Below, one piece after another: positions 12,878 through 29,642 of a DNA stretch of 64,000 nucleotides. The position numbers were made by a program, and so were the translations under genes. The notes beneath the pieces are model-generated. The model did no database searches and had not been told where the DNA came from. It was given only the letters and a program-made list of their open reading frames with translations. The stretch is taken from contig DASZXC010000003.1 of the NCBI GenBank assembly GCA_035546035.1, forward strand, positions 64,479-128,478. Direction: 5' to 3'. This stretch comes from Minisyncoccota bacterium. GTDB taxonomy: Bacteria > Patescibacteriota > Minisyncoccia > Phycocordibacterales > UBA6065. The stretch's first letter is position 1. Each line of letters begins with the position of its first letter.

Positions 12878-13595
12878 ATGTCGATGATATTGGCGGGCTA
12901 CTCGGGTATGGTACCCACACCTCGAGGCTTTGTAAGGGTATTTTAGCACGTTTGAGCCGACCCATTTGAGGTTTGTGGGTCGGGGTCTATATTTCCGAAG
13001 TTGGCACAATTTGGCACACGAAAAGGCACTGTTTCAAACAAGCGTTCCAAAGGCACTTTGGGGTATGCCCCGCTAGGAGCCATAAGGGTATTTTGAGGAT
13101 ATTGGAACAGCACACTGTTCCGAGGGACTGTGCCAATTTGATTTGAGAGAAAAAACATAGAATTGACACAGCGTATTGGACCGCTACAATTAGGATAACT
13201 TGAGCGATCAAGTGCCGTTCATTCCAAGACAAATACGTACTTGAGAGAATTCGATACGCTCTGCTTCTGTCTTGTCGGCGCATCAAGACCTCCGCACCCA
13301 ACGTTGCAACTGGGGTGGAAGCGGACGCACGATTTCTCTCGCCATCTTCTGATGGACAGGTACTTCTCTCATACCTTCGAAGCCGTTGCAGAATCCGCAC
13401 TGTCAAAATAGCGGAAGTTAAATAAACGAATAGGAGGGGTTGAAGATTTCACTGGGGTAACAAATGACTAACGCTTTTTTGCGCGTCTTTGTTATTCAAG
13501 TGAAGCACTCGACCCTTTGAATACCAAAAGACCAGCACTTTGCGTGCTGGTCTTTTGTTTTGGATGCGGATTATTAAGTTAATCAACACGCATCC

Positions 13596-14882
13596 ATGTC
13601 CAAACAGACACCACTGGTGTGGCGCACCGAAAAACGCCGAGTAAACGATCTTCTACCCTACGAGAAGAATCCGAGAAAGATAACGGATAAGCAGATGGAA
13701 GACCTCAAAGAGAGCTTGAAGAAGTTCAACCTTGCGGAGATTCCTGCGATTAACCTAGACGGCAAGATAGTCGCTGGCCATCAGCGCATCAAAGCCCTTC
13801 AGCTCCTTGGTCGAGGAGAGGAAGAAATAGAAATCAGAATCCCTAACAGAAAGCTCTCTGCTTCAGAATTCAAGGAATACCTTCTCACCTCAAATCGCTC
13901 GGGCGGATCATGGGATTGGGAAATCCTTGCGAGCGACTTCGATATCGACACCCTGCTCGCTTCGGGATTCGACTCGACCGACCTGACCAACATCTTTGAC
14001 GATTCACTCGAAGTGACCGACGACAACTTCGACGAAGAAAAAGAGTTGGAGAAAATCAAAGAAACCGATATCAAATTCGGCGACTACTTCGCTCTTGGTC
14101 GTCACCGATTGCTCTGTGGTAACTCGATGGATCAGAATATGGTCAAGTTCCTCATGAATGGCAACGAAGCGGACTTGATCAACACCGACCCTCCGTACAA
14201 CATCGGCCTCTCATATGACAAAGGTGTCGGCAACAAGGCGAAGTATGGCGGCACAACTGATGACAACAAATCCGATGCCGAGTACCGAACCTTCCTGAAG
14301 ACCCTTATCGAAAATGCCCTCGCCGTCTCAAAGAAGGACTGTCACGTCTTCTTCTGGAACGACGAGACGCACGTATACATCCTCCAAGAGCTGTACAAGG
14401 AGCTTGGCATCGACTCCAAGCGCCTTTGCCTGTGGATCAAAGACAACGCAAATCCGACACCTGGAATCGCCTTTAACAAAGTGACCGAGTACTGCGTGTA
14501 CGGCACTCGCGGCAAACCCTATCTCTCCGACAAGGTAAAGAACTTGAATGAGATCCTCAACAAGGAAACAACTAGTGGCAACCGACTGACCGAGGATATT
14601 CTCGACCTCCTGAATATCTGGCTTGTTAAGCGTTTGCCATCACAGGAATACGCTCACCCTACGCAGAAGCCTCCGACACTTCACGAAAAGGCATTGAGGC
14701 GATGCTCTCGCCCAGGAGACATAGTCCTCGATCTCACTGGCGGATCAGGAAGCATTCTCTCTGCCTGCGAACAGCTCAAACGAACGGCCTATGTTGTCGA
14801 GATGGAGCCGATCTTCTGCCAATTGATTATTAACAGATTTAAGCAAATAGCACCCCATGAAAAAGTCACCAAACTTAATTAA
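13596..14882 (+). CDS. ParB-like nuclease domain fused to a DNA (N6-adenine/N4-cytosine) methyltransferase
   Basis: N-terminal ParB/Srx motifs (NPR, GHQRIKA). C-terminal beta-class amino-MTase with motif IV DPPY (INTDPPYN) ahead of motif I (DLTGGSGS). Confidence 0.75.
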   Translation: MSKQTPLVWRTEKRRVNDLLPYEKNPRKITDKQMEDLKESLKKFNLAEIPAINLDGKIVAGHQRIKALQLLGRGEEEIEIRIPNRKLSASEFKEYLLTSNRSGGSWDWEILASDFDIDTLLASGFDSTDLTNIFDDSLEVTDDNFDEEKELEKIKETDIKFGDYFALGRHRLLCGNSMDQNMVKFLMNGNEADLINTDPPYNIGLSYDKGVGNKAKYGGTTDDNKSDAEYRTFLKTLIENALAVSKKDCHVFFWNDETHVYILQELYKELGIDSKRLCLWIKDNANPTPGIAFNKVTEYCVYGTRGKPYLSDKVKNLNEILNKETTSGNRLTEDILDLLNIWLVKRLPSQEYAHPTQKPPTLHEKALRRCSRPGDIVLDLTGGSGSILSACEQLKRTAYVVEMEPIFCQLIINRFKQIAPHEKVTKLN

Positions 14883-15615
14883 GGCTGGAGATATCTTTCG
14901 ACTTGGAGATCACGTTATCGCTTGTGGCGATTCGAGAGACAAGGAATTTGTAGCGAGAGTCATCGGCAAGCACAAAATCAAAGCCGTCATTTCCGATCCT
15001 CCATATGGAGTGGCAGTTGCCGAGAGCAAACAAAACTTCAAAGCATTGCTTAAAGACAAGAAGATCGAGAATGATCATCTGCAAAGCGACGAGGAATATA
15101 AAAAGTTCACTGAAGATTGGCTTGGTGCTGTGACTCCGCATCTCGAAAGGAAGAACGCCATCTACATCTTCAATTCAGACAAGATGATCTTTGCATTGCG
15201 TGACGGAATGAAATCAATCGGATGCAAATTCGCACAGCTCATCGTCTGGGTGAAGACTCAGGCGGTTGTCGGACGAATGGATTATGCACCGATGCATGAA
15301 CTCATCGCATATGGGTGGTACGGAACGCACGAATTTCTGAAGTCGAAAGACAAATCAGTCATCGTGCATCCTAAGCCAACTAAAAGCCCCCTTCATCCCA
15401 CGACAAAGCCTGTGCCGCTCATCAGGCATTTGATTCTCAACAGCACTCGCATTGGCGATGTTGTCTATGACTGTTTCCTCGGCTCGGGAACGTGCCTTCT
15501 TGCGTGCGAACAGACGAAAAGAATCTGCATTGGAATCGAGCTTGATGCCGAATATGTGCAGACAGCCATACATCGCTGGGAAAAATTATCAGGACTAACC
15601 GCAATAAAGATATGA
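14857..15615 (+). CDS. DNA methyltransferase (beta-class N6A/N4C)
   Basis: ISDPPYG motif IV, HPTTKP and DCFLGSGT motif I. Overlaps the upstream MTase gene by 26 nt. Confidence 0.7.
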   Translation: MKKSPNLIKAGDIFRLGDHVIACGDSRDKEFVARVIGKHKIKAVISDPPYGVAVAESKQNFKALLKDKKIENDHLQSDEEYKKFTEDWLGAVTPHLERKNAIYIFNSDKMIFALRDGMKSIGCKFAQLIVWVKTQAVVGRMDYAPMHELIAYGWYGTHEFLKSKDKSVIVHPKPTKSPLHPTTKPVPLIRHLILNSTRIGDVVYDCFLGSGTCLLACEQTKRICIGIELDAEYVQTAIHRWEKLSGLTAIKI

Positions 15616-16004
15616 AAAGAACATCAACCATTCGCAGAAATACTGCCGAGAAGAAAGTACTTCTCGAACAGCTTAGAAAAATACCTATCGTGCAAATTGC
15701 CTGCGAGCGAGCAGACATCGGGCGCACCACGTACTACCGATGGCGACGCGAGGATGAGAAGTTCAAGAAATTGGCAGACGAAGCGATGCAGGATGGCGAG
15801 GAGATGATCAACGACTTGAGCGAATCGCAACTGATTACCCTCATCAAGGAAAAGAACTTCTCTGCGATTCAGCTCTGGCTAAGGCAACACCATCCGAAGT
15901 ACCGGACAAAGGTCGAACTTACTGCAAAGATCGAGGACGAGTCTCTCACTCCCGAAGAAGAAAACCTCGTTAGAAAAGCCTTAGGAATAGACGACCATGC
16001 ATAA
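15612..16004 (+). CDS. phage terminase small subunit-like HTH protein
   Basis: 130 aa with N-terminal HTH (GRTTYYRWRRED), directly upstream of and overlapping the large terminase gene. Confidence 0.45.
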   Translation: MKRTSTIRRNTAEKKVLLEQLRKIPIVQIACERADIGRTTYYRWRREDEKFKKLADEAMQDGEEMINDLSESQLITLIKEKNFSAIQLWLRQHHPKYRTKVELTAKIEDESLTPEEENLVRKALGIDDHA

Positions 16005-18093
16005 TCACGACACAGAGGTTTCGCTTGAGAAGATCGATGAGATCGTACAAAACCGACAGATCAGGCGAGCGATCACCAGAGCCTGCCATCACTGGTTCTT
16101 CCACATCTACTTCTCGCATTACATCAAGTACAAGACCGCAAGATTTCATAAGGAACTGTTCGAGTTGACCGAAGATACGACTCACAAGACAACCGTCATC
16201 GAGGCGTTCCGAGGATCGGGCAAGACCACGATCATGGGAACTTCCTACGCCATCTGGTCTATTCTCGGATGCCAGCAGAAGAAATTCGTGCTCATCATCG
16301 CCAAGACCGAAAGTCAGGCAAGACAGTATTTGGCAAACATAAAGCTCGAACTTGAAAACAACCGATTGCTTCGGTTGGACTTGGGACCATTCGAAGAACC
16401 GAACGACGAATGGCGAGCAGTTTCTATCGTGATCCCAAAGTACGGTGCGAGAATCACAGTGGCCTCGATAGACAACTCGATTCGAGGTATCAAGCACGGA
16501 GCGCATCGTCCTGATCTCATCATCGCAGACGACCTTGAGGACTTGGATATCGTAAAGACCCAAGAAAGCCGTGACAAGATATTTAACTGGCTCATGGGTG
16601 ACATCATTCCTCTCGGAGACAAGGATACGAGGATGATCGTTATAGGTACTAAACTCCATAACGACTCCGTCATTGCACGATTGAAGAAAGCTATTATCGA
16701 AGGACGAATGGATGGCATCGCAAAGTCATTTCCGTTCCTCCAAGAAGATGGGACCGCAACATGGCATGAGAAGTATTCGACTCAGGCAGACATAGACACG
16801 CTTCGAAAGTCCGTGCCAAGCTCGCAGGCATGGGAGCGAGAGTATATGCTCCGCATCATCGTCGATGACGATCAAGTCATACGACCCGAGTGGATTCGTT
16901 ACTATGACTCGCTTCCGTCTGATGCATACCGATTCGCGGCGACTGGCATTGACCCCGCAATCAGCGAGAAAGAAACGGCGGATTACACCTCGATGGTTTC
17001 AGGAAAGATATATGGCAGGAAGAAAAACCTAAAGATTTATATTCTGCCGAATCCTGTGAACGAGCGGATGGATTTCCCGAAGACCATCGAGCGTATCAAG
17101 TCACTTTCTCGATTGCTTGGAAACGCACACGTATGGATTGAGAACGTGGGATACCAGAAGTCGATCATAGATCATCTACGTTCAGAGAACTTTCCTGCAA
17201 AGGAATATAAGTCTCATGGATCAGACAAAAGGGCGAGACTCTCATTGGTGTCCCATCTTGTGCAGTCAGGCACGGTACTCTTCCCGAGAGTCGGCGCAGA
17301 GAAACTGATATCCCAGCTCATAGGTTTTGGAACGGAAAAGCACGACGACCTTTCCGATGCTTTCTGTATCCTTGTTTCAAGCGTCATAGATCAGGAATCG
17401 AGCGTGCCGAAGGGATATCACCGACTGTTCAGCGAGGCGGTCATAGATGCAAGCTGTAGGGGCGATGCCGCATTTGCGGGAGAGAAGCGACTCGGTATTT
17501 CTATTGCCAATGCGTATCGGCCATATTCAGCCATAGTGTTGCGGAGCGATACTACAGCAAAGGTGCTTCATCACGGCTTTATTGATCCTGTCTCATTGGC
17601 AAAGAAAACGATAGAGCTTGCGAAGGCATACGAGATACCAATTTCTGATGAGAACATATTTGTTGATAAGACAGGAGAAGGACAGGAACTGTGCAGACTA
17701 CTCCGTCAATTCGCACAGGGACAGTTCGAGATTAGAAAATATGAGACAAGACAGAGATACGGCATTGAGATGAGCGAACCTCCGCAATTCGAGAATAATC
17801 TGTTTAGCGATAATTGGGCGCGGGCATATTCAAAGCTTGTGGGCTGGATCGAGAAAGGCGGCGCATTGCTTGGCAACCACGATTTCGACGATCTTCTTTA
17901 CATCTGCTACGCAGATCAGAGTGGAAAGAGAAAACTAATCGAACGAGAAGTGCTTGCAAGCGAAGGGATCGATACTTCGATACCCGATGCGCTTGCACTT
18001 ACGATTGCAAAAGACAAACGAGTGATTAGCAGGCCAAATGAAGATGATTACTGGGAGGAGGATTCACCGCAGTATCCAACGATCGGGATATAA
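15997..18093 (+). CDS. phage terminase large subunit
   Basis: Walker A RGSGKTT, Walker B DLIIADDLED, RNase-H-like nuclease motif TGIDPA..DYTS. Confidence 0.7.
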   Translation: MHNHDTEVSLEKIDEIVQNRQIRRAITRACHHWFFHIYFSHYIKYKTARFHKELFELTEDTTHKTTVIEAFRGSGKTTIMGTSYAIWSILGCQQKKFVLIIAKTESQARQYLANIKLELENNRLLRLDLGPFEEPNDEWRAVSIVIPKYGARITVASIDNSIRGIKHGAHRPDLIIADDLEDLDIVKTQESRDKIFNWLMGDIIPLGDKDTRMIVIGTKLHNDSVIARLKKAIIEGRMDGIAKSFPFLQEDGTATWHEKYSTQADIDTLRKSVPSSQAWEREYMLRIIVDDDQVIRPEWIRYYDSLPSDAYRFAATGIDPAISEKETADYTSMVSGKIYGRKKNLKIYILPNPVNERMDFPKTIERIKSLSRLLGNAHVWIENVGYQKSIIDHLRSENFPAKEYKSHGSDKRARLSLVSHLVQSGTVLFPRVGAEKLISQLIGFGTEKHDDLSDAFCILVSSVIDQESSVPKGYHRLFSEAVIDASCRGDAAFAGEKRLGISIANAYRPYSAIVLRSDTTAKVLHHGFIDPVSLAKKTIELAKAYEIPISDENIFVDKTGEGQELCRLLRQFAQGQFEIRKYETRQRYGIEMSEPPQFENNLFSDNWARAYSKLVGWIEKGGALLGNHDFDDLLYICYADQSGKRKLIEREVLASEGIDTSIPDALALTIAKDKRVISRPNEDDYWEEDSPQYPTIGI

Positions 18094-18115
18094 ATTTATA
18101 TTCTTAGGTGCTTAC

Positions 18116-18520
18116 CTAACTGAAATTGATCAAAAAGTTATACATTCCCATACCGCACACTCCCTGCAAAGGCTCTCCAGCTTTCGGAGTTCCAATGTCA
18201 ATCGTTTCTTCTCCTGTCTGCGGAAGAATCTTCTGGTAGCCAATTGAGCGAATCGCAAGTGAGGCCGAACAGTCATAGGTGCCGTTGGTCTTCACGATGA
18301 GCTTTGTCGGGATATTGGCTTTGGCCGTAGAGATTTTTGGAGAATAACCCGCCTTCGCATCAATCGTGATGTACTGAACACCATCTCGTATCTCAACGTT
18401 TTGGGCCGCTTGCGTAGAGGCAGTTGTATTAGCCTCCTTCGACTTTGATCCACCGAGAAAAACGATGCCGAGACCGACGACAAGGGCGAATGTGATAATG
18501 ATGGAAGCGGTTTTGTTCAT
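18116..18520 (-). CDS. small secreted protein, possibly metal-binding (Cys/Met motif GVCGMGMY)
   Basis: N-terminal signal/TM segment. Convergent with the terminase and co-directional with the copper module. Confidence 0.3.
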   Translation of the reverse strand: MNKTASIIITFALVVGLGIVFLGGSKSKEANTTASTQAAQNVEIRDGVQYITIDAKAGYSPKISTAKANIPTKLIVKTNGTYDCSASLAIRSIGYQKILPQTGEETIDIGTPKAGEPLQGVCGMGMYNFLINFS

Positions 18521-18539
18521 AAAGTAATTATATTAAAAA

Positions 18540-19571
18540 TTAGATGTTGAATAAAGGACGGATGATGCCCAATCCCGCAAGACCAGCGAGAAGTGCAAAG
18601 ATACCGAGACCAATCACGACGATGCCTGCTGACTTAAAGAACAGCGGTGCATGTTTCGAATGAGCGAAAGACACTGAGCCGAAGGAAAGGAGCGCAAGCA
18701 TCGGCAGGGTTCCAAGGGCGAACGACAGCATAATCAAAAGTCCCGACATAAACGATCCGCTAGAGAGCGCGGCGACCTGCATTGCTTGGGTGAATCCACA
18801 TGGCAGGAAGAATGTGCCGATGCCGATAAGGATAGGAGCGAAGGTCGAGTGCTCCACTTTCCTGAAGTAAGCAAATATACCAGTCGGCAATGAGACTTTA
18901 TTTTTCTTGATGATGCCTACAAGATTGAGTCCGAGCAATATCATCACGGTTGATGCGATGAGTCCGAGAATCGCTGAAAACGTAAAGCTCACTCCGATTG
19001 CCTGACCGACAAGACCGAGCACACCTCCGAGAATTGCGAATCCGAAAAGTCGTCCACCGTGGAAGAGAACAAATTGTTTCTTGCTTGTTTTGGTACTTTC
19101 GTCCTGTGCGACTTTCGCCGAAAGAGAAAGGATCAGACCACCGACCACGGCGAGGCAACTTGATATCGATGCGATGAGTCCGATGACGAAACTTGTAGCC
19201 GGAGTTGTTGTACCGCCGATGCCGAGATTCAAGATGCCTGATTTTTGCAGAATGAAAAACAAGATCAGAAATGCTAGTCCAATTGGTATCGCTTTCCAAA
19301 TCACATCGTCCTGTTTTTTCTCAGCTACCTTTTTCTCTACCGAGAGCATGTAGCCGTTCTTTTTGATCTTCTCTGTAAGCTCTTTTGCCATCAGTTCAGG
19401 GTTTTGATCGCTATCGGTCTCGATGGTGACTGTCTCTTTTTTGAGATCAACTACCGACTTCTTGATGAAATCCTCCTCGCCCAAAATATCCTCAATAAGA
19501 ATCTTGCATGAGGCGCAATGGGTACCGGAAACGTGGAATGTAAGTGTCTTCATAGAATTATAATTTTGCAT
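18540..19571 (-). CDS. HMA-domain fused to CcdA/DsbD-like thiol-disulfide transmembrane protein
   Basis: N-terminal heavy-metal-associated fold (HVSGTHCASC), then a polytopic membrane domain with conserved TM cysteines (ISSCLA, FLPCGF). Confidence 0.5.
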   Translation of the reverse strand: MQNYNSMKTLTFHVSGTHCASCKILIEDILGEEDFIKKSVVDLKKETVTIETDSDQNPELMAKELTEKIKKNGYMLSVEKKVAEKKQDDVIWKAIPIGLAFLILFFILQKSGILNLGIGGTTTPATSFVIGLIASISSCLAVVGGLILSLSAKVAQDESTKTSKKQFVLFHGGRLFGFAILGGVLGLVGQAIGVSFTFSAILGLIASTVMILLGLNLVGIIKKNKVSLPTGIFAYFRKVEHSTFAPILIGIGTFFLPCGFTQAMQVAALSSGSFMSGLLIMLSFALGTLPMLALLSFGSVSFAHSKHAPLFFKSAGIVVIGLGIFALLAGLAGLGIIRPLFNI

Positions 19572-21858: not shown

Positions 21859-21862
21859 ATAT

Positions 21863-22138
21863 TTATTTTCGTTTGAGCTTATATACCCTGATAATTTCTT
21901 CCTTTGCTTTTTTAGTCTGACCAGAGTGCATCTGATGATGTACACAGTGATCCAGATGGTTTTCGAGGAGCATGTCTTCGACGTTGGACAGACCCTGCTT
22001 GACTGCCGATGTTTGGGTAATCACATCAATACAGTAGGTATCGTTTTCAACCATTTTCTGAAGTCCTCTAACCTGACCTTCTAAAAGTTTGAGACGGCGG
22101 ACTACTTTCGCCTTATTTTTGTCATCCATGTATTTCAT
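21863..22138 (-). CDS. csoR: CsoR/RcnR-family metal-sensing transcriptional repressor
   Basis: 91 aa with the conserved Cys/His metal-site arrangement (YCIDV...H..C) in a helical bundle. Confidence 0.7.
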   Translation of the reverse strand: MKYMDDKNKAKVVRRLKLLEGQVRGLQKMVENDTYCIDVITQTSAVKQGLSNVEDMLLENHLDHCVHHQMHSGQTKKAKEEIIRVYKLKRK

Positions 22139-22227
22139 ACTGAAAGTATATACCCCCTAGGGGGTATTGTAAAGCGAAGTTACCAACAGTCTGGACTCAT
22201 TTAAGGATCAGCGTCATCCATTAGTGT

Positions 22228-22563
22228 GTGAAAGATGACGATATCGAAGCAATCATAGATGCGGCAAAGCATTTCAAGTACCACGAGCCGAGTGGCACTA
22301 CGCCCTTTAACCGCATCTCAAAGCTCCCTGAATCAAAGCGTCATATGAAAATGGCGATCAAAGAAAGGATCAGGCTATTGGTCGCTTCGTACATCTCTCT
22401 AGCTTCTTTCATCGACGATGACCTCGTCGATTTTCTTGAATACGGAGACACCAAGAATCACAAGAGAAAAGTGATTCGAATATATAACAAAGTTTTTAGA
22501 GAGTTTGAAAAGTTGAGAAAAGAGATCAGTCAGTTTGATCCTTTTGAGGTTCCGAAGGAGTAG
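22228..22563 (+). CDS. hypothetical protein
   Basis: 111-aa ORF in the low-GC island. Confidence 0.3.
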   Translation: MKDDDIEAIIDAAKHFKYHEPSGTTPFNRISKLPESKRHMKMAIKERIRLLVASYISLASFIDDDLVDFLEYGDTKNHKRKVIRIYNKVFREFEKLRKEISQFDPFEVPKE

Positions 22564-23896
22564 ATCGCTTCTTTCTTTTCGGACGATTCGCTTTCATCTG
22601 CTCTCGGCGCAAGCGTCTAGCCTCGTCCTTCTTCTTTTGCTCTTCTTCGCGTGCCTTCATTTCTTCTGGAGGAACGATACGCAAATGATTCATGATCTTG
22701 TAGCCCTTGAGATGCTCGAATGGATCGATAAATTTATACCACTCCTCCATGTGATAGTAATCTTTGCCATCTTTGCCTCTCGTCTTCACTGACTGTGATT
22801 TCAGCATATCTTTCGGTGGCAAGAAGTCTTTGTTGTCCTCAATGAGGAACAGTTCGGTATGTACTCCTTTGCCGTATTGGCTCACTGTGCGAGATTTCAC
22901 GATTCCTTCCTTGACCCATTTGCGGAGCGCAGGAGAGGTGACGTTGAAATAATGATCAAAATCGTATCTGGTGTACCAACTATCCTTTTCTTTTGCCAGC
23001 GATGCAGGAATTTCTCCGTCATCAATAGCTTTCTGACAAACAAGGCACTTGATACCGTATTCGTCATACCAATTATCGCCCTCTTTGGTGTGGTCTCCAC
23101 AAATGAAGCAACCGTAACCAACACCTTCGAGATGGAATCCTTTCGGGTTTTCTTTGAGCTTCTCGTCCCTGCGTTTCTGTTCCTCCTCAAACTCCTTGCC
23201 TAGCCGTGCTAGTTGCTCCATTCTGTATTTTTCATCGCTATATTCGGCACCTTCTTCGGCGCTCATACAGAAGCGGTCTCGGTCTTTGGCGAAGTCAGGA
23301 TCAAAGTCGTCGTCTTTCTTTGAATGCCATTCGTATTCTTCTTTTTCGACATAACCACACTTCGGACACGTGAGAGTAGTGACCAATTTCTTTCCATCGT
23401 CATCCATCTTCTTATCGAGTTCGGTACTGCAATGGAGACAAAAAGTTGGCTTCACTCTCCATTCCTCGCCATCGGAGAAAAAGGCGCGGCGAGGGAGGCA
23501 TTTGTTCGGACAATCAAACATGAAAAAGACTCGATCGCCTTTCTTGTCGTCCGATTGAAGATCCTTGAAGGTTACCGTCAGCCGATTACGACATGTGAGG
23601 CAACGAATGTCTTCGGGAGGCTGGGCGTTTTCCAAAAGCTCGTCTCGTTTCTTGTCCCGATCCATCCATTCGCGGATCGTCTCGCTTTTCTTAAGGTACC
23701 TTTCGCCCATAGTGCCACGCAGGTATAACTTCTTTGCCCAAGCCTCGACTCTTTGAGCCTCTTCCTTGTCGAGCTTGCTGTCCTCGGGAAGTGGTGTTGG
23801 CTTATCGCAGATCTTCTCTATGCGACGGCAATCCTCTACGGTGCCTCGGTCATAGAGGTCGATATAGTATTGATGACTTTTGAGATGTTTCGTCAT
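22526..23896 (-). CDS. hypothetical multi-zinc-ribbon protein with basic C-terminus
   Basis: At least six CxxC pairs (CLTCRN, CPNKC, CLHCS, CPKCG, CFICGDH, CLVCQK) and a Lys/Arg-rich tail. Confidence 0.4.
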   Translation of the reverse strand: MTKHLKSHQYYIDLYDRGTVEDCRRIEKICDKPTPLPEDSKLDKEEAQRVEAWAKKLYLRGTMGERYLKKSETIREWMDRDKKRDELLENAQPPEDIRCLTCRNRLTVTFKDLQSDDKKGDRVFFMFDCPNKCLPRRAFFSDGEEWRVKPTFCLHCSTELDKKMDDDGKKLVTTLTCPKCGYVEKEEYEWHSKKDDDFDPDFAKDRDRFCMSAEEGAEYSDEKYRMEQLARLGKEFEEEQKRRDEKLKENPKGFHLEGVGYGCFICGDHTKEGDNWYDEYGIKCLVCQKAIDDGEIPASLAKEKDSWYTRYDFDHYFNVTSPALRKWVKEGIVKSRTVSQYGKGVHTELFLIEDNKDFLPPKDMLKSQSVKTRGKDGKDYYHMEEWYKFIDPFEHLKGYKIMNHLRIVPPEEMKAREEEQKKKDEARRLRREQMKANRPKRKKRSTPSEPQKDQTD

Positions 23897-23954
23897 TTAT
23901 CCACATTTTATCAATTCTAATAATAGATTTCACTTTGTTTCTCTTTCTTTTGTA

Positions 23955-24177
23955 GGTTAATTTCGTTAACCACTTTCGGTTAACCTAGTTCACCAGTTTT
24001 GGTTAACTTTCTTTACTAGGTGGATAAGTTTTCCACAGGTTGCCCTAATACTAGGTTTCTCTTTGTTTCCTTTATTTTGTGTGTCTACGTAGTAGACCGA
24101 TATCGGTCTACTTTCTAGACCACTTTTGGTCTACTAGCTAGACTAGTCTGAAATTTAGACTACTTTTTCCACAGCCA
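23955..24177. repeat. iteron/palindrome-rich regulatory region upstream of the serine recombinase gene
   Basis: GGTTAAC x4 (23955-24007). 22-bp perfect palindrome agtagaccgatatcggtctact (24091-24112). Further GGTCTAC/TAGACC copies, an agactagtct palindrome, and two TTTCCACAG copies (about 24030 and 24168). Confidence 0.5.
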
Positions 24178-24247
24178 GTTACCAACTTCGAGGGAGTATG
24201 GGACGCTCTGGACTCCTAGGGCGAGTTGCGTCATTCCTTGTGTTTGT

Positions 24248-25579
24248 ATGACAAAAATACAAACATTAGAGCCATTAGGGACTGCGGCCAAAGTAGCAAG
24301 CCCCATAAGGGTGAAATACTGCCTTTATGCAAGAAAGTCGTCAGAGTCAGAGGAAAGACAGGTTTTGAGCATCGACAGCCAGATCAAGGAAATGCTCCAA
24401 CTGGCTGAAAGAGAGGGGCTTGAGATCGTGAACATGAAGCGTGAATCGCACTCGGCTAAGGAGACTGGGCAACGACCAGTCTTCAACGAAATCGTGGATG
24501 AGATCAAGCAAGGCAAGTTCAATGGGATTTTGACGTGGGCACCTGACCGTATCTCAAGAAACGCAGGCGACCTCGGAAAGATCGTGGACTTGATGGATGC
24601 GGGAAAGCTCCATGAGATACGCACTTTCGGGCAGAGCTTCCGTAACAATCCGAACGAGAAGTTTCTCCTGATGATTCTCGGGTCACAAGCGAAGCTCGAA
24701 AACGATAATCGAGGCATCAATGTGAAGCGAGGGTTGCGAACGCGAGTGGAGATGGGATTGTGGCCAGGAATGGCACCGCTCGGATATTTGAATCAAAAGT
24801 TGATGGACAAGAAATGTCGGATAGTAATTGATCCCGAACGCGCACCGATCGTAAAGCAGATGTTCGAGAAAGTGGCATTTGATCTCTGGTCTGGTCGCAA
24901 GGTATACAACTGGCTCCGATTCGAGCTTAATTTCCACACCAGAGGAAATAGACCACTAACACTCTCTGGTGTGTACCGAATGCTTCAAATGCCGATTTAT
25001 TACGGACCCTTTGAGTATCCGAAGAATAGCGGCAACTGGTATCAAGGAACGCATGAGCCATTGATCACCGAAGAATTATTCAAGAAAGTGCAGGAACAAC
25101 TGAAGCGAGACAAAATCGTGCGCGAGAACAGAGAGTTTGCCTTCACCAAACTCTTCACTTGCGGCATGTGCGGATCGGGCATCACGGCGCAGGAAAAGTA
25201 CAAGGAACTCAAGGACGGCACGAATGCGAAATACGTCTACTACTCCTGCTCGAAAGCGAGAGACAGGAACTGCAAGAACAAATACATTCGTGAGGAAGAA
25301 TTGATTGAGGAATTGTTTAAGATCATCGACAAGCTGAACATGAATGAACTCGGAATGCGGATGAAGCTCGAAGAAGAAATAAAGCGATTCAATCGATTGC
25401 AGAGACTTGCAACTAAGGGCAAACCAAAGATGCAGATCGATGAGGACGATATTGCCACGCGCGAGTATGCGAAATACGTCCTGCGCGAGGGTACGCCGTT
25501 AGAGAAGCGAGGGCTGATGGGGCACCTGAGATCGAGGCTTGTGCTAAATGACAAGAAAATTAGCCTGATTGAAGAATAA
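24248..25579 (+). CDS. large serine recombinase (integrase)
   Basis: N-terminal resolvase catalytic domain (YARKSSESEERQ...SIDSQ, RISRN), recombinase domain, C-terminal zinc ribbon (CGMCG...C..C). Confidence 0.8.
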   Translation: MTKIQTLEPLGTAAKVASPIRVKYCLYARKSSESEERQVLSIDSQIKEMLQLAEREGLEIVNMKRESHSAKETGQRPVFNEIVDEIKQGKFNGILTWAPDRISRNAGDLGKIVDLMDAGKLHEIRTFGQSFRNNPNEKFLLMILGSQAKLENDNRGINVKRGLRTRVEMGLWPGMAPLGYLNQKLMDKKCRIVIDPERAPIVKQMFEKVAFDLWSGRKVYNWLRFELNFHTRGNRPLTLSGVYRMLQMPIYYGPFEYPKNSGNWYQGTHEPLITEELFKKVQEQLKRDKIVRENREFAFTKLFTCGMCGSGITAQEKYKELKDGTNAKYVYYSCSKARDRNCKNKYIREEELIEELFKIIDKLNMNELGMRMKLEEEIKRFNRLQRLATKGKPKMQIDEDDIATREYAKYVLREGTPLEKRGLMGHLRSRLVLNDKKISLIEE

Positions 25580-25602
25580 AAATATAAAAAGAATGAGCCT
25601 CC

Positions 25603-25632
25603 GCAAAAAATTTCGCGGAGGCTCAAGTATTC
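25603..25632. terminator. bidirectional hairpin terminator between recombinase and DGR target gene
   Basis: gagcctccgcg / cgcggaggctc 11-bp stem with A/T-rich loop. Confidence 0.55.
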
Positions 25633-25662
25633 AAGAGGGACAAGCCCTCAAGGGATCAAGAA

Positions 25663-26469
25663 TCACTTCCTGGCAGCCGACAACCCGAGGTTGTCGTGGC
25701 GGTGGTCATCCCAGTAGTAGTTGACGAAGAGCCCGCCGGAATCGAAGAGGCCGACGTAGACACGGCTACCGCCCGAGCCGAGACTGGAAGTCCGAACGTA
25801 AACGCCTTCGAAGAGTCGGACACCACGGACCTCGAAATAGGTCGTGATGAACCAACACATCTCGGCGGCGTTCGGCACCTTCTCGAGCGCGGAGAGAAGC
25901 TTGTTCTGCTCGTTCCACGTCTTGCTGGTCGAGCTCGAAACAGGCGTCTTCTTGATCAGGAGCCAGCCGAAGGACGTCTTGTCCTCGCGGGCGAACTTCT
26001 GGTCGGCATACCACCCACCCGTCTTCAAGTGGAAGTGGGCAGGCTGAATCTCCCGAACGTTGAGCGTGGACATCGCAGTGGGCGGCGCAGGCATGACGGC
26101 GTAGCCGTTTTCCTTGCACCACGTGAGCACGTCCTCCGACGGCAGACTTTCGGCCAGTGCCGTGATCTGCTCGGCGGTGTAAACGATTGCTCTGCGAGCT
26201 TTCATGACTTCTTCCGGCGTGATGAAATCCGCGCCGAGGATGGATTGCGCCAAACCGTAGTCGGGCGCTTTTGCCGAGAAGCGACGGATTCCTTCAGCGA
26301 GATACTCGGCGAAGCCGGGATGCTCGTTCAGGATCTGTGCGCTTTCGTCCTTGAGTCCCGCCTTGTTGTATTGGGCGCGGAACGTTTCGGTAGCTCTCTG
26401 TCCTTTCGGACTGTCTGCGGTTACCAGTGCAGACGTGTTCAATGATTTTTTCATCGACATCATCTCCAT
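25663..26469 (-). CDS. DGR target (variable) protein with C-terminal C-type-lectin-like variable region
   Basis: C-terminus RVYVGLFDSGGLFVNYYWDDHRHDNLGLSAARK corresponds codon-for-codon to the TR-encoded DGNRVNVGNFDSDGLNVNNYWDDNRNDNIGLSAARQ. Differences fall only at TR adenines. Confidence 0.8.
   Translation of the reverse strand: MEMMSMKKSLNTSALVTADSPKGQRATETFRAQYNKAGLKDESAQILNEHPGFAEYLAEGIRRFSAKAPDYGLAQSILGADFITPEEVMKARRAIVYTAEQITALAESLPSEDVLTWCKENGYAVMPAPPTAMSTLNVREIQPAHFHLKTGGWYADQKFAREDKTSFGWLLIKKTPVSSSTSKTWNEQNKLLSALEKVPNAAEMCWFITTYFEVRGVRLFEGVYVRTSSLGSGGSRVYVGLFDSGGLFVNYYWDDHRHDNLGLSAARK
25669..25783 (-). repeat. DGR variable repeat (VR)
   Basis: 115-nt match to the TR with 13 mismatches, all at TR adenines. 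GC-rich IMH-like 3' end gtcggctgccagg. Confidence 0.85.
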
Positions 26470-26910
26470 TTTGCTGATTTACCGAGAACGCTCGGAACGA
26501 CTTGCCTCTGATTGAGACGAGTTTTCTAAGCCCTGAATTAAGGCTCAAAAAGCTCGTCTCAACAGTGATTCTCTATCAAAGAACTACCTAGCTAGTATAG
26601 CAAAGAAATGGCTATTTGTCAATGGTTTTGGCGATCTGTCAATCTCTGCGCTATACTATCAGCATCTTGCTAATGTAGCTTGGATTACGGTTCAAGCTCG
26701 CGAGATATCTCACCTTGAGATATCGCCAGAGTACCAGTGGTTTACGGATCACGGTAGAGCGCGATTAAGGATAGAGAGAACTTCTTGTTCGCTTCTAGAG
26801 GAGATACTTTGAAAGAAGTTGCTCCCGAATAAAATTCAGAGATGGGAGGATATAGACCTGCAAAGGTAGTAAACCTCGATTCTCGGTGACACAGATGGGA
26901 GCGGGCAATA

Positions 26911-27025
26911 TCTCGACTCGGACGGTAACCGTGTCAACGTCGGCAACTTCGATTCCGACGGGCTCAACGTCAACAACTACTGGGATGACAACCGCAACGA
27001 CAACATCGGGTTGTCGGCTGCCAGG
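26911..27025 (+). repeat. DGR template repeat (TR), AAC-codon rich
   Basis: 28 adenines. 13 of them are substituted in the VR and none of the 87 non-A positions differ. Boundaries set where non-A mismatches begin. Confidence 0.85.
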
Positions 27026-27075
27026 CAGTCATAGCTCTATCCAAGGAAACTTCCGCCAAAAAGCGGAAGTTTCTG

Positions 27076-27426
27076 TTAACGATCCTTCGTTGACTTTATC
27101 CACCCTCCGAGCATTCTCCCTATTTCGTCGAGATTGGCTTCGATGATGATATATTTCTTAGCATCAATCGCTTTGACGTCTTTCATCAGGCGAATGCAGA
27201 CTCGCAGGAAATTAAGTTTAACGCTCGTCTTCTCCAAAGTCGGTAACTTCTCGGACTTGGACTGCTGACTTGCGAAAATAATACCTTCCAGTACATCAAT
27301 AAGAAGGCTTTCGCACTTTTGCCAGAGCGTATAGCGGTCTTGCTTGGGTACAGTAAGACGAAGATTATAGAAATCTTTGTAGAGGTCATAACTTTTCTTG
27401 AAAATCGGTATGTCTAAGTCATTCAT
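27076..27426 (-). CDS. avd: DGR accessory variability determinant (Avd, four-helix-bundle protein)
   Basis: 116 aa. C-terminal IIIEANLDEIGRMLGGWIKSTKDR resembles the bAvd tail (LIAEVGRILGSWIARVNRK). Helix-bundle profile. Confidence 0.75.
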   Translation of the reverse strand: MNDLDIPIFKKSYDLYKDFYNLRLTVPKQDRYTLWQKCESLLIDVLEGIIFASQQSKSEKLPTLEKTSVKLNFLRVCIRLMKDVKAIDAKKYIIIEANLDEIGRMLGGWIKSTKDR

Positions 27427-27428
27427 AT

Positions 27429-28523
27429 ATGAAAATTTATAAGGATTTATATTGGTCGATAATTTCTCCCCAATCTCTATTCAGAGCTTGGGAAGTATTT
27501 AAGTCCGACAAAAGGAATAAACCTGACGTTTCCGAGTTTGAACTCCACATCGAGCAGAATATTTTTGATCTGTACCGCGATCTGAAGAATGAGACGTATC
27601 GACACGGGCCATATAAAGGATTCTGGATACACGATCCGAAGATCAGGCGCATACATAAGGCGGTTGTCCGAGATCGGGTGCTCCATCACGCGACCTTTTC
27701 GGTGCTGAACAAAATATTTGAGCCGACTTTTATCAATGACTCGTATTCGTGCCGTATCGGCAAAGGCACTCACAAAGGCGTGGAGAAAGTTGCTGATATG
27801 CTTCGTACAGCGAGCAAGAATAATACCCGCCAATGCTATGCACTCAAATGCGATGTGAGGAAATTCTTTGACTCTGTTGACCACCAAGTGTTGAAAGACA
27901 TCCTTGGTAGGAAAATCAAGGATCAAAAGACTATTTCTCTTCTGAAAGAGGTTATTGAGAGCTACGAGAAAAGCGGCACTTGCGAGAGAGAGAGAGAGAG
28001 AGAGAGTAAAACGCTGCCGCTTTTTACTACAAATACCAACAAAGGGGTGCCCATCGGCAACCTGACTTCGCAGATTTTCGCCAATATTTACATGAATGAG
28101 TTTGACCAGTTCGTTAAGCATGGGCTTCGGGTGAAAAATTACGCGCGTTACACCGACGATTTTATGATTATATCAGAGGACAAAGAATATCTCGAAAATT
28201 TACTGCCAAAATTGCAAGACTTTTTGAGAGAAAAACTGAAACTCGAACTGCATCCGAACAAGATATCTGTTCGTAAATTTCACGAAGGCATAGACTTCCT
28301 CGGGTATGTCATATTCCCGCATTATAAGCTCCTTAGAGCGAAAACCAAAAAGAGGGTTCTGAGAAATGTACGCAAGAAGATGGCTTGCTACCAAAAAGGA
28401 TTAATTCCTGAAAATCACTTACATCAAAGCATGCAGTCATATCTTGGCGTTTTGTCTCACGCGAATACCTACGAGCTGACGGAGAATTTGAAGAATCAGT
28501 ATTGGTTTTGGATGAAAGAGTAA
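27429..28523 (+). CDS. DGR reverse transcriptase
   Basis: RDRVLHHA and SYSCRIGKGTH N-terminal motifs, DGR-specific IGNLTSQ (in place of QGxxxSP), YTDD catalytic motif (RYTDDFMII). Confidence 0.9.
   Translation: MKIYKDLYWSIISPQSLFRAWEVFKSDKRNKPDVSEFELHIEQNIFDLYRDLKNETYRHGPYKGFWIHDPKIRRIHKAVVRDRVLHHATFSVLNKIFEPTFINDSYSCRIGKGTHKGVEKVADMLRTASKNNTRQCYALKCDVRKFFDSVDHQVLKDILGRKIKDQKTISLLKEVIESYEKSGTCERERERESKTLPLFTTNTNKGVPIGNLTSQIFANIYMNEFDQFVKHGLRVKNYARYTDDFMIISEDKEYLENLLPKLQDFLREKLKLELHPNKISVRKFHEGIDFLGYVIFPHYKLLRAKTKKRVLRNVRKKMACYQKGLIPENHLHQSMQSYLGVLSHANTYELTENLKNQYWFWMKE
27984..28006 (+). repeat. (GA)11 dinucleotide microsatellite inside the RT coding sequence (encodes ERERERES)
   Basis: gagagagagagagagagagagag read directly. 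In frame with the RT. Confidence 0.9.
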
Positions 28524-28530
28524 ACTACTT

Positions 28531-29319
28531 TTAGGCAAAGTGAGCTGTGAGCTTTGTCACATAATCTGCGTATTCTGAAAATATCTGAAGGTTCGCGTAC
28601 ACAACCTTTGCATCAAGTTTCTTTCCAGTAGGATGACCAGCGTCGTTTCGGTTGAGACGGATGAAATTGAAAATACCATCAAGATAAGTTTCCCAATTAT
28701 CCTGAAGTTCTTTGGGTAGAGATCGAACATCGTTTACAAACTCCTTTTTGAATTCCTTGTACTGGGTTGAAATGAATTTTTCCTTGGTGTTCTTTTCCAA
28801 TCTAGCTTTTCTCGTGGCGTCTGTGATCGAATCTATATATGCCTCAATAAGGGAGAGCATGAGATTCTCAGATGCCACACCAAGAGTGATAGTTGCAGAG
28901 AGAAGGTGGCGACGATGATATGCGGCGATCGCCTCGCCAATGTAGGCTAACGTGACATCATCAAGGGTAGGAACCTTTGTCTTTAATGCTTTAACGTATC
29001 CTTCAGGATCATACGGTAGCCAATTTTCCTCTTTGAATGCATGTTTGCCTAATTCAGTGACAGTAAGCCAAGGATATCCGCTATTAAAGTCGCCAGCTGT
29101 GCCAGGATAGATGTATCCGACATTTATCAACTCCTGAACTATCTCTCGGGCGACTGAGTGAATCTTGGCAACTTCCCAATGAGGACCATTGCCGTGAGGG
29201 AACAAAGCATACACTTGTCCCATCTGATGCTGTTGCATCTGATTAGGATTTGTTTCAGCCCAAACAACCTGACTCTTGAAATGCTCAAATATTTTATTTT
29301 TGATTTCTTCTCGAGTCAT
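28531..29319 (-). CDS. hypothetical protein
   Basis: 262-aa low-GC ORF between the DGR RT and tRNA-Ser. Confidence 0.4.
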   Translation of the reverse strand: MTREEIKNKIFEHFKSQVVWAETNPNQMQQHQMGQVYALFPHGNGPHWEVAKIHSVAREIVQELINVGYIYPGTAGDFNSGYPWLTVTELGKHAFKEENWLPYDPEGYVKALKTKVPTLDDVTLAYIGEAIAAYHRRHLLSATITLGVASENLMLSLIEAYIDSITDATRKARLEKNTKEKFISTQYKEFKKEFVNDVRSLPKELQDNWETYLDGIFNFIRLNRNDAGHPTGKKLDAKVVYANLQIFSEYADYVTKLTAHFA

Positions 29320-29407
29320 TTATTGTGAAAGTATAGCAACCTACTAGCTTTGTGGGTCACAGCTCAAACCAGAGCATGTGGGTCATCAAAACTAACAGGT
29401 TGTCAAT

Positions 29408-29495
29408 GCGGAGAGGGGGAGATTCGAACTCCCGATGAGGTTTCCCCCATACCGCATTTCGAGTGCGGCGCATTCGACCACTCTGCCACCTCTCC
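29408..29495 (-). tRNA. tRNA-Ser (anticodon CGA), long variable arm
   Basis: Reverse complement GGAGAGGTGGCAGAGTGGTCGAATGCGCCGCACTCGAAATGCGG...GGGAGTTCGAATCTCCCCCTCTCCG. Confidence 0.75.
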
Positions 29496-29570: not shown

Positions 29571-29642
29571 GGCCCTATCGTCTAATGGTTAGGACAGGAG
29601 CTTTTCAAGCTCTAAATCGGGGTTCGATTCCCCGTAGGGTCA
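29571..29642 (+). tRNA. tRNA-Glu (anticodon TTC)
   Basis: GGCCCTATCGTCTAATGGTTAGGACAGGAGCTTTTCAAGCTCT...GGTTCGATTCCCCGTAGGGTCA. Confidence 0.7.

Follow-up and report, generated by a model that had tools for sequence, protein, structure and literature searches.

The low-GC stretch at about 12,891 to 29,407 of the window, the whole 64,000-nucleotide stretch of DNA that was analysed, is best explained as a single mobile island, intact and integrative, from a recurrent Paceibacterota (CPR/Patescibacteria) family that uses a large serine recombinase (LSR) for integration; we put the probability of this reading at roughly 0.8. Transfer between cells would most likely be as a phage satellite. The island has mscL on one side and the 3' end of tRNA-Ser(CGA) on the other, and it combines a conserved backbone and conserved termini with two interchangeable cargo slots.

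Composition sets the island apart from its surroundings, as the original prediction had held. Recomputed with refined coordinates (12,891 to 29,407), its GC content is 46.6% (0.466) versus 56.4% (0.564) on either flank. Rather than being uniform, which had been named as evidence against an island, the windowed GC profile falls from 0.56-0.59 to 0.41-0.49 over about 12.5 to 29.5 kb, and the sole hump within the island (0.58, at 25.5 to 26.5 kb) is the target gene of a DGR. Moreover, the dinucleotide signature is clearly foreign: the island-host distance is 0.106, while host pieces of the same size average 0.028 and reach at most 0.044. The flanking host features are as follows.

12415-12490, minus strand: tRNA-Val (tRNA search)
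12542-12877, minus strand: mscL, the host gene at the left junction (Pfam MscL, 1.5e-21)
29408-29495, minus strand: intact tRNA-Ser(CGA), 3' end toward the island (ARAGORN; Rfam tRNA, 60.5 bits)
29571-29643, plus strand: tRNA-Glu (tRNA search)

Comparison with related genomes, which the original prediction had proposed as a check, revealed the empty site. In relatives of this Paceibacterota (CPR) genome, tRNA-Ser(CGA) lies directly beside mscL. For instance, L081 has the order tRNA-Glu, tRNA-Ser(CGA), mscL, tRNA-Val, TsaD, with 31-52 nt from tRNA-Ser to mscL; 100-200 nt separate the two genes in L006 and L004, and in L001 just a TPM gene lies between them. Because TsaD identity between the window and its nearest host relatives is only ~71%, the empty site is read from synteny rather than from an isogenic strain. 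The window's mscL is 83% identical to that of L001 and has the same start; 13 nt separate its ATG from the end of the island. Atypical composition, adjacency to a tRNA 3' end, and absence from relatives are the marks of a tRNA-linked genomic island, and they support horizontal acquisition of a segment without counterpart in L081, L006, L004, and L001.

The tRNA genes on both sides had been proposed as boundaries and as candidate integration targets, and on both counts only the right side holds. Because mscL separates tRNA-Val from the left junction, which precedes the mscL start codon by 13 nt, the tRNA boundary is on the right alone; the integration target is tRNA-Ser only, and tRNA-Val is incidental. 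LSR relatives with at least 70% identity likewise adjoin tRNA-Ser genes. Both junctions could be placed to within ~3 nt, and the ends are organized as follows.

12878-12921, no strand: left junction (attL), with host sequence up to ~12890, the candidate crossover TG at 12891-12892, and an element arm at 12893-12921 containing ACCCACA
12891-13144, no strand: conserved left terminal block (82% identity to sister element L119, 78% to sister element L117)
29346-29407, no strand: right terminal block (P arm), with two TGTGGGTC motifs flanking a hairpin and the end ...GGTTGTCAA flush with the tRNA

Homology to both sister elements starts at 12890-12893, and the flanks are unlike. The 29-nt left arm is 100% identical to positions 7019-7047 of L119. 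On the other side, the right terminal block is 96.6% identical to L119 20141-20229, rising to 100% over the 31 nt at 29376-29406, and a GGGTCA motif 26-27 nt from the tRNA is also present in L085, L089, L092, and L117. The left terminal block holds a leftward extended -10-like element, TGCTAAAAT, at 12940-12948 on the minus strand, as well as a TTGGCACAATTTGGCACACG block and a palindrome at 12957-12984; sequence blocks from this region are found again in L117, L119, L087, and L099. The palindrome had been offered as a candidate recombinase core site. It does exist, but a role as core site is not supported: it lies 65-90 bp within the element and is kept in the sister elements, and the junction is at ~12,891.

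When the island ends were compared, direct repeats of >10 nt were absent, in line with the earlier failure to identify unambiguous att sites; this absence is expected because the integrase is an LSR. A TG/GCGG core is common to both junctions in the window, L119, and L117. In the reconstructed attP, TGTGGGT lies 24 nt to the left and ACCCACA 20 nt to the right of the TG, and because this inverted symmetry is imperfect, the TG is only a candidate crossover dinucleotide. A search for an excised circle or attP junction found none, and there was no circular contig.

Between these ends, the genes and elements outside the cargo slots are the following.

13196-13566, plus strand: candidate structured non-coding RNA (promoter TTGACA-16-TACAAT at 13163-13190; terminator at 13525-13557)
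13596-14882, plus strand: ParB-like nuclease/N6_N4 MTase fusion, backbone (Pfam N6_N4_Mtase, 1e-26; phrog_498, 2e-83; ParB phrog_620, 6e-23)
14857-15615, plus strand: second N6_N4 DNA methyltransferase, backbone (Pfam, 1e-32)
15612-16004, plus strand: TerS-like HTH protein, backbone (HTH_Tnp_1_2, 1.5e-7; phrog_4044 TerS, 3e-10)
15997-18093, plus strand: TerL, long form of 698 aa, backbone (phrog_38, 2e-77; PDB TerL matches)
22228-22563, plus strand: 111-aa ORF, backbone (same position in L117 and L119, 80-82% nucleotide identity)
22526-23896, minus strand: 456-aa multi-zinc-ribbon protein, backbone and family hallmark gene (homologue search, context, AF2 model)
23917-24247, no strand: divergent control region (repeat block at 23917-24176, then the LSR leader; conserved in L119 and L117)
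24248-25579, plus strand: LSR, integrase (Resolvase PF00239, 3e-19; Recombinase PF07508, 3e-14; Zn_ribbon_recom PF13408, 1e-9; phrog_95, 1e-65)

The gene content listed in the original prediction is correct, as evidenced by Pfam and PHROGs, and the searches of terminase and recombinase against phage databases that it called for returned TerL (phrog_38, 2e-77) and a phage-type integrase (phrog_95, 1e-65). These data support a phage-derived island with genuine TerS and TerL. The ParB-MTase fusion (428 aa) has the same length in both sister elements, as does the second methyltransferase (252 aa), and the TerS-like protein has 27 homologues over family loci. TerL comprises an ATPase and a nuclease, followed at the C-terminus by a further nuclease-like domain (~464-698), whose model (pLDDT 86.9) resembles the TerL nuclease domains 8dkr and 4iee (TM 0.65-0.69). 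Homologues of ~700 aa over their full length fall into more than 70 clusters, and on these sequence comparisons the 698-aa form represents a conserved subfamily rather than an artefact of gene fusion. Over 40 homologues, the Walker and acidic residues of the ATPase and first nuclease domain are invariant, and the extra domain has no conserved acidic residues. Upstream of the methyltransferases, the candidate RNA region folds at -133 kcal/mol (z = -6.45), contains no ORF of >56 aa, matches no Rfam family, and differs among sister elements.

The LSR contains all three domains, complete, and is 86%, 75%, and 70% identical to the recombinases of L119, L117, and L126, respectively; its assignment as the integrase of the island is supported. 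Ahead of it, the control region consists of two paralogous ~128-bp units in which short palindromes cluster (GGTTAAC; GTCTAC/GTAGAC), with a conserved ~70-nt leader after them. This leader (24177-24250) is common to L091 (93%) and also to L084, L087, L088, L092, L095, and L100. The zinc-ribbon protein has 311 homologues, none with a name, and the L119 copy is 96% identical; in the homologue neighbourhoods L121 and L123, ParB-MTase, TerS, and LSR are again present. Structural matches to its AF2 model were just local Zn-ribbons, with no match to a primase-like fold. We speculate that the 111-aa ORF might be a directionality factor.

The two cargo slots hold a copper module and a DGR, both of which had been reported in the earlier reading and are upheld by Pfam and by the adenine pattern of the TR/VR pair.

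18094-22205, minus strand: cargo slot 1, copper module (convergent genes at 18116-22129; Pfam; gene calls on the near-identical contig L120)
18116-18520, minus strand: cupredoxin (Cupredoxin_1)
18540-19571, minus strand: HMA-DsbD_2 protein (Pfam HMA-DsbD_2)
19558-21858, minus strand: CopA (E1-E2_ATPase, 3e-58, plus Hydrolase and HMA)
21863-22129, minus strand: CsoR (PF02583, 7e-25)
25580-29345, no strand: cargo slot 2, DGR plus ORF (bAvd, 6e-17; RVT_1, 3e-24)
25663-26469, minus strand: DGR target gene (VR at 25662-25783)
26911-27032, plus strand: DGR TR (TR/VR inverted repeat, 88% complementary)
27076-27426, minus strand: Avd (bAvd, 6e-17)
27429-28523, plus strand: DGR RT (RVT_1, 3e-24)
28531-29319, minus strand: last ORF of slot 2 (ORF list)

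Slot 1 has the composition of a CsoR-regulated copper efflux operon, namely, the CsoR repressor, a P1B-type ATPase with HMA, and accessory metal-binding proteins. CopA homologues at 73-91% identity are numerous, and the few with a source name are from Paceibacterota/CPR. Likewise, slot 2 contains the RT, Avd, an adenine-biased TR/VR pair (13 of the 15 mismatches fall at TR adenines), and a VR at the 3' end of the target gene, as expected of a DGR. Neither L119 nor L117 has anything corresponding to the copper stretch, and other genes occupy the slot there; L126 carries the same module in the same slot. In place of the DGR, L119 and L117 have 176-aa and Ymh-like 280-aa ORFs. Cargo in relatives includes type I, IIG, and III RM systems, a ThsB-like protein, genes for an aminoglycoside phosphotransferase (APH) and an acetyltransferase (GNAT), CD-NTase/Cap15 (CBASS-type) genes in L126, and an SduA_C (Shedu-type) domain protein.

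Backbone gene order and gene lengths in L119 and L117 are identical to those of the window element: left terminal block, ParB-MTase, MTase, TerS, TerL, 111-aa ORF, 456-aa zinc-ribbon ORF, LSR, and right block. In both, the arms are 74-82% identical to the window, only the two cargo slots differ, and the right block abuts a tRNA-Ser 3' end (tRNA-Ser(GGA) in L119). The backbone was seen in all eight related genome contexts fetched (including L121, L123, L126, L127, and L128), and none of the eight contains capsid, portal, or tail genes. In IMG/VR, ~28 of 33 LSR relatives have the MTase/TerS/TerL module upstream, a co-occurrence inflated because IMG/VR is enriched for terminase-bearing sequences. 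The family is widespread and phage derived, with a fixed backbone and swappable cargo, and has seemingly not been described before.

The recurrence of this layout bears directly on whether the island is instead the residue of a full temperate phage that lost its portal, capsid, tail, and lysis genes and acquired copper genes in their place. Genuine TerS/TerL and phage-type ParB-MTase genes without structural genes are what such decay would leave, and no island ORF matches portal, major capsid, tail, or lysis genes in Pfam or PHROGs; moreover, the unassigned ORFs are too few for a virion. Nevertheless, we consider a decaying remnant very unlikely: layout, gene lengths, and ends recur at unrelated sites and in unrelated hosts, every backbone ORF is intact, the terminal arms match those of L119 at 100%, and the long TerL belongs to a conserved subfamily. 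The original description of a truncated prophage or mosaic, with a terminase joined to resistance genes, is not supported for the same reason, as TerL-cargo-LSR without portal or capsid is the standard family layout (L119, L117, L126-L128, and the ~28 IMG/VR loci). Side-by-side independent elements, e.g., terminase plus copper genes (12.9-24.1 kb) next to LSR plus DGR (24.2-29.4 kb), are less credible still. That division would fit an LSR whose distances to the two ends are 4 and 11 kb, the repeat-rich region ahead of it, and the tandem arrays of family members in L096, L092/L093, L101/L103, and L126. However, both arms are colinear in L119 and L117 with one pair of termini, TerL followed directly by LSR is the commonest family layout in IMG/VR loci, the repeat region belongs to the conserved backbone and separates two of its genes, which diverge from it, and a search within the island gave neither an att-like end nor a tRNA fragment.

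A more serious question, on which we lean toward no, is whether the backbone is mobilized by the LSR while the terminase does not package, being either vestigial or exapted for phage-packaging interference, defence, or element replication or resolution, with transfer by transformation or another route. None of the contexts examined showed a helper phage or a phage with this TerL clade, capsid genes are missing from the eight genome contexts, the cargo of relatives is mostly anti-phage defence, and the extra TerL domain lacks conserved acidic residues. Against this stand the invariant ATPase and first-nuclease residues and the TerS/TerL order, co-conserved with phage-type methyltransferases as in packaging modules.

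For the intact mobile island, we envisage that the LSR recombines an attP formed by the two terminal arms (TGTGGGT ... TTGTCAA-TG-GCGGGC ... ACCCACA) with an attB made up of the last few tRNA-Ser bases and the sequence downstream, which would leave the tRNA intact and create no target duplication. Cargo modules would be swapped among family members via recombination in the conserved arms, and mscL may be driven by the promoter-like element that points leftward from the island end, ~60 nt upstream of the gene. Judging by gene content alone, the most likely route between cells would be that of a phage satellite relying on its own terminase: small (16.5 kb), with an LSR, TerS, and TerL and without structural genes, the island has a PICI-like makeup. 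After excision, its TerS/TerL would package the ~16.5-kb DNA into helper-phage capsids, and the two methyltransferases would protect that DNA. It is possible, if somewhat short of probable, that these are the first recognised CPR/Patescibacteria satellites, very abundant (thousands of TerL homologues), hijacking helper capsids with their own TerS/TerL (a subfamily with a duplicated, probably inactive nuclease domain), integrating by LSR at tRNA 3' ends, and serving as a main vehicle that carries DGRs, defence systems, and resistance operons from one of these reduced genomes to another.

CPR genomes are tiny, and how they acquire adaptive genes and spread their unusually frequent DGRs is poorly understood. 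The island is a concrete vehicle, with a compact LSR and terminase backbone, tRNA 3' end targeting, and two slots that across genomes hold defence systems, antibiotic or metal-resistance genes, and DGRs. A groundwater study reported that 20% of Patescibacteria MAGs contain proviruses (PMC12960796). Elements of this kind, which lack a capsid, may make up the bulk of the provirus counts in CPR MAGs, and if the satellite reading is true, many reported 'proviruses' would be these elements. The family also offers naturally occurring LSR/att pairs whose ends are well defined, along with an odd TerL with two nuclease-type domains.

Among known systems, the island shares with classical tRNA-linked genomic islands an atypical GC content, tRNA 3' end adjacency, an integrase, and absence from relatives, but the direct repeat of a tRNA 3' segment that flanks those islands is absent here. 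Targeting of tRNA 3' ends is more usual among tyrosine integrases. Its three-domain LSR, lack of target duplication, and short identical core at attL and attR resemble those of LSR prophages and islands (phiC31, Bxb1, TP901-1, A118, SPbeta, skin; SCCmec with Ccr), although SCCmec lacks a terminase and the prophages come with their full virion modules. Phage satellites (PICI, cf-PICI, PICMI, P4-like) are also similar in size (10-17 kb), in having a site-specific integrase, no full virion set, and their own packaging-specificity gene(s), and in accessory or defence cargo in variable hotspots. However, they use a tyrosine recombinase rather than an LSR; PICIs have TerS only and cf-PICIs a full capsid set, whereas the island has TerS and TerL without capsid genes. 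In further contrast, the host is a CPR bacterium, and no Stl-like repressor or primase/replication module was recognised (no primase/helicase or origin domain in any island ORF by Pfam or PHROGs). Of the tycheposon and cryptic elements of Prochlorococcus, 910 of 937 use tyrosine recombinases and many have replication genes, and the PICI-like forms carry MCP or TerS but never cargo (bioRxiv 10.1101/2020.12.28.424599). The island differs in having a terminase module alongside its cargo and no replication genes found. Nevertheless, both are tRNA-targeting elements of streamlined genomes with a modular backbone and niche-adaptive cargo, in which integrase type tracks the targeted tRNA and tandem arrays form at tRNA hotspots.

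On the evidence of its sequence, the island (window 12,891-29,407) appears to be a tRNA-targeted, phage-derived integrative island from a family of which literature searches found no description. Windowed GC falls from 0.56-0.59 to 0.41-0.49 within about 12.5-29.5 kb. With refined coordinates, the island has a GC of 0.466 between flanks of 0.564 each, and its dinucleotide signature differs from that of the host by 0.106, against a mean of 0.028 and a maximum of 0.044 for equal-sized host pieces. Both measures confirm the predicted compositional island. Searches with Pfam and PHROGs recovered every gene that the original prediction had named, and the three surrounding tRNA genes were all found.

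Features of the island and its borders (window positions)
12415-12490, minus strand: tRNA-Val
12542-12877, minus strand: mscL
Within the island: ParB-like/N6_N4 methyltransferase (MTase) fusion and a second MTase
Within the island: TerS-like helix-turn-helix (HTH) protein
Within the island: TerL (phrog_38, 2e-77)
Within the island: convergent cupredoxin / HMA-DsbD_2 / CopA / CsoR module
22526-23896, minus strand: 456-aa zinc-ribbon protein
Within the island: two ORFs without assigned function, one of them that of the 456-aa zinc-ribbon protein above, and a further such ORF, last in the island
Within the island: large serine recombinase (LSR) with three domains
25662-25783 and 26911-27032: VR and TR of the diversity-generating retroelement (DGR)
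29408-29495, minus strand: tRNA-Ser(CGA)
29571-29643, plus strand: tRNA-Glu

The flanking genes (class I aaRS, TsaD, mscL, a PG-binding protein, and an M23 peptidase) place the window, by homology, in Paceibacterota (CPR); the best match to TsaD in a one-genome-per-species GTDB set is 71% identical. Gene order in relatives that lack the island identifies it as an insertion. In L081, an empty-site contig recovered by a metagenome scan with mscL that yielded no same-species contig, the order is tRNA-Glu(-), tRNA-Ser(CGA)(+), mscL, tRNA-Val, and TsaD, with a gap of just 31-52 nt between tRNA-Ser and mscL. The gap is 100-200 nt in L006 and L004, and the closest relative, L001, has one TPM-domain gene there, while in another species (L005) a different family member (DGR, ParB-MTase, and TerS-like) adjoins mscL. 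No exact-protein matches to mscL or the right-flank PG-binding protein were found, and species-level relatives are too diverged in their intergenic alignment for junction mapping. The tRNA-Ser/tRNA-Glu pair is flipped as a unit in L004 (9158-9400) relative to L001 (7797-8064), L006, L010, L081, and the window. Across window 1-64000, eleven tRNA genes are scattered, alone or a few together, between short genes that share an orientation; tRNA-Ser, mscL, tRNA-Val, TsaD, and aaRS, all minus-strand, follow one another at intervals of a few tens of nucleotides, which suggests tRNA-mRNA co-transcription in a compact host genome.

Homologues of the long-form TerL led to two close sister elements, L119 (JGI, 390-kb contig) and L117 (NCBI GCA_030680695.1, 649-kb contig). 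Both share the window's gene order and nearly its lengths (ParB-MTase, 428 aa; MTase, 252; TerS, 133; TerL, 698), followed by minus-strand cargo, a 111-aa ORF that might, speculatively, encode a directionality factor, an LSR of 442-445 aa, and more genes; in L119, the 456-aa ORF lies between the 111-aa ORF and the LSR. Conserved and variable parts were set by blastn of the window against L119.

Conserved and variable parts of the element (window positions)
12,890-13,144 and 13,596-18,092: Arm 1, 74-82% identity to L119
13,145-13,595: RNA region; candidate structured RNA in the window, different sequence in L119 and L117
18,094-22,205: slot 1; copper operon in the window, five small ORFs in L119, APH, methyltransferase, and GNAT in L117
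22,206-25,562: Arm 2, 79.5% identity to L119
25,580-29,345: slot 2; DGR and orf28531 in the window, 176-aa and Ymh-like 280-aa ORFs in L119 and L117
29,346-29,434: right terminal block, 96.6% identity to L119

In the sister elements, GC is 45-46% for the backbone arms and 48-52% for the hosts, which fits a recent arrival in the window's 56% GC host. Searching IMG/VR with the LSR gave 33 relatives at 46-84% identity, and about 28 of the 33 have a same-strand ParB-MTase/(MTase)/TerS/TerL module upstream. The LSR often starts 40-250 bp past TerL; at other loci, the two are separated by 7-8 kb of other genes. The corresponding IMG/VR pattern scan with TerL gave no matches, where that with the LSR succeeded. 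TerL homologues numbered 2,611 at E <= 1e-20 among the 8,000 candidates scored. The backbone is also present in four genome loci, L121 and L123 (found via the zinc-ribbon ORF) and L127 and L128 (via short-form TerLs), and no capsid, portal, or tail Pfam families occur in their neighborhoods. The island, its phage origin, its cargo, and its tRNA-Ser target stand as predicted, but its description as a truncated prophage does not, given sister elements and an architecture that recurs across a family. Several IMG/VR contigs carry two family members in tandem (L092/L093, L101/L103, and L096), and L084 has two convergent LSR genes. L096 was considered as a circular contig and rejected: its ends are two distinct TerS copies, 93% identical, and it is therefore a tandem array.

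Cargo varies widely. In IMG/VR relatives, PADLOC identified, between or beside TerL and the LSR, a type I RM system with a ThsB-like TIR protein, a type III RM system, and a type IIG RM system with an SNF2 helicase. L127 carries a Shedu-domain protein, type I RM, and an S24/LexA-like repressor; L128, type III RM and an S24/LexA-like repressor; and L121 and L123, SNF2-type helicases. The more distant L126 has a ParB-MTase, TerS, a 489-aa TerL, opposite-strand cargo (cupredoxin, DsbD_2, a CopA 83% identical to that of the window, and a CDF transporter), and then the LSR, and from this position the copper module recurs in the same slot. In L125, the copper module has an ordinary chromosomal setting. 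The TR and VR of the window's DGR are mutually inverted, and 13/15 of their mismatches fall at TR adenines. It has an unusual layout (25663-27426), in which the minus strand carries the target gene and Avd and the plus strand TR and RT, leaving VR inverted relative to TR. The DGR of L087 is arranged in the same way, and that of L005 has VR and TR as direct repeats, yet Avd opposite to RT.

Alignment with the sister elements located the junctions. On the left, in a three-way alignment, homology to L119 and L117 begins at window 12,890-12,893 (window, TTGGCGGGCTACTCGGG; L119, TTTGCGGGCTACTCGGG; L117, GTAGCGGGCATCGTGGG), and the left flanks are unrelated; the junction is upstream of mscL, 13 nt from its ATG (12,877), leaving tRNA-Val, also proposed as a target, uninvolved. 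On the right, the element end ...GGTTGTCAA abuts the 3' end of tRNA-Ser (TGCGGAGAGG..., 29,408), and L119 has the identical end against a different isoacceptor, tRNA-Ser(GGA). Over the left 29 nt (12,893-12,921) and right 31 nt (29,376-29,406), the window matches L119 with 100% identity, by contrast with 74-82% for the arms and 86% for the LSRs, as recombinase-bound att arms would be expected to look. TG/GCGG is the sole sequence common to both junctions, and no longer direct repeat was found between the island ends; so short a shared core fits a serine recombinase with crossover at the extreme 3' tip of the tRNA. We propose TG (12,891-12,892 and 29,408-29,409) as the candidate crossover dinucleotide. 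The candidate attB would consist of the 3' end of tRNA-Ser followed by ...ATATCATCGACATATG, and the candidate attP of 29,346-29,408 joined to 12,892-12,990, with TGTGGGT 24 nt to the left of the candidate TG and ACCCACA 20 nt to the right. The reconstructed attP junction had 0 matches in viral contigs. The palindrome put forward as a core site (12,957-12,984) has conserved counterparts in the sister elements, but its position, 65-90 bp in from the left end, means that it is not the crossover site. The 10-mer TGTGGGTC, present at both ends (12972-12981 and 29349-29358), was rejected as an att direct repeat because both copies are inside conserved element sequence. The sequence adjoining the right end of L117 matched no Rfam family.

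LSRs at least 70% identical to that of the window adjoin tRNA-Ser (L085, L088, L089, L092, L119, and L126), and more distant ones adjoin tRNA-Glu (L104 and L027), tRNA-Asn (L108), or tRNA-Gln (L109 and L112); in every family case with an adjoining tRNA, the tRNA is oriented with its 3' end toward the LSR side of the element. At the LSR-proximal end of L126, a 24-nt tRNA-Ser 3' fragment is followed by a small insertion, beyond which comes the complete tRNA; this suggests that an attB may need only about 24 nt of tRNA and the flank downstream of it. Fragments of tRNA-Ser 3' ends lie beside or near element ends in L126 (1-1800; 24 nt) and L119 (~6800-7015; 18 nt), with small extra insertions near them, that in L126 being an APH gene. 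These fragments indicate that tRNA-Ser is a putative integration hotspot, used repeatedly or in tandem.

The 698-aa TerL is not a fusion artifact, since more than 70 protein clusters of similar size (about 700 aa) match it from end to end at 42-77% identity, and its ATPase and nuclease residues are invariant among homologues. Its C-terminal extension (residues ~464-698; window 17386-18093) is predicted to form a second RNase-H-like, TerL-type nuclease domain (pLDDT, 86.9; TM, 0.65-0.69 against the E217 and Sf6 nuclease domains), probably a pseudo-nuclease, because 40 homologues share 0 invariant acidic residues. The 456-aa protein, with several CxxC zinc ribbons, is highly conserved, having 311 homologues at 56-96% identity, all unnamed; PDB comparisons by sequence and by fold gave nothing informative beyond the zinc ribbons. 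It accompanies ParB-MTase/TerS/LSR elements, with its gene divergent from the LSR gene in the window and from ParB-MTase in L123. Between the divergent zinc-ribbon and LSR genes (23917-24176) are two paralogous units of ~128 bp, conserved in L119 and L117, each with a 34-nt leader and then a short-palindrome cluster (GGTTAAC, four copies; GTCTAC/GTAGAC, six), which resemble operator arrays in a region of divergent promoters. At the left end (13163-13566, plus strand), a near-consensus promoter (TTGACA-16-TACAAT) and a strong terminator enclose no ORF; the predicted 371-nt RNA has a much more stable fold than shuffled sequences (z = -6.45) and matches no Rfam family, and the sister elements have a different sequence at this position.

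The comparisons establish, at the level of sequence, site-specific insertion at the tRNA-Ser 3' end, with a conserved backbone and termini and interchangeable cargo in two slots. The LSR would integrate and excise the element, and cargo would be swapped via recombination within the conserved arms. Insertion would have separated mscL (12542-12877) from its former upstream region and placed before it an element-borne, leftward extended -10-like sequence, TGCTAAAAT (12,940-12,948, minus strand), which is conserved in L117, L119, L087, and L099 and is now, of the promoter-like signals preceding mscL, the one closest to it.

For transfer between cells, a satellite-like life cycle would be the most economical reading, because the element, at 13-17 kb, keeps TerS, a TerL with invariant residues, and two phage-type MTases and has no virion genes. 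That the terminase was exapted or is vestigial, instead of packaging element DNA, nevertheless keeps substantial weight, since no helper phage with the window's TerL clade was seen among the contexts examined, no replication module was recognized in the island, and neither the attP search of viral contigs nor the circular-contig test found a circular form.

A groundwater study reported proviruses in 20.4% of Patescibacteria MAGs (PMC12960796), and hallmark-gene tools would presumably score elements of this kind as proviruses. The nearest analogues in the literature are tycheposons and PICIs. Most tycheposons rely on tyrosine recombinases and have replication genes, and cargo is never present in their PICI-like forms (bioRxiv 10.1101/2020.12.28.424599). 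No replication module of the kind expected in a PICI was recognized in the island, and it differs in its integrase class and in combining TerL and cargo without capsid genes. By analogy, it would function like a PICI- or tycheposon-type cargo island.
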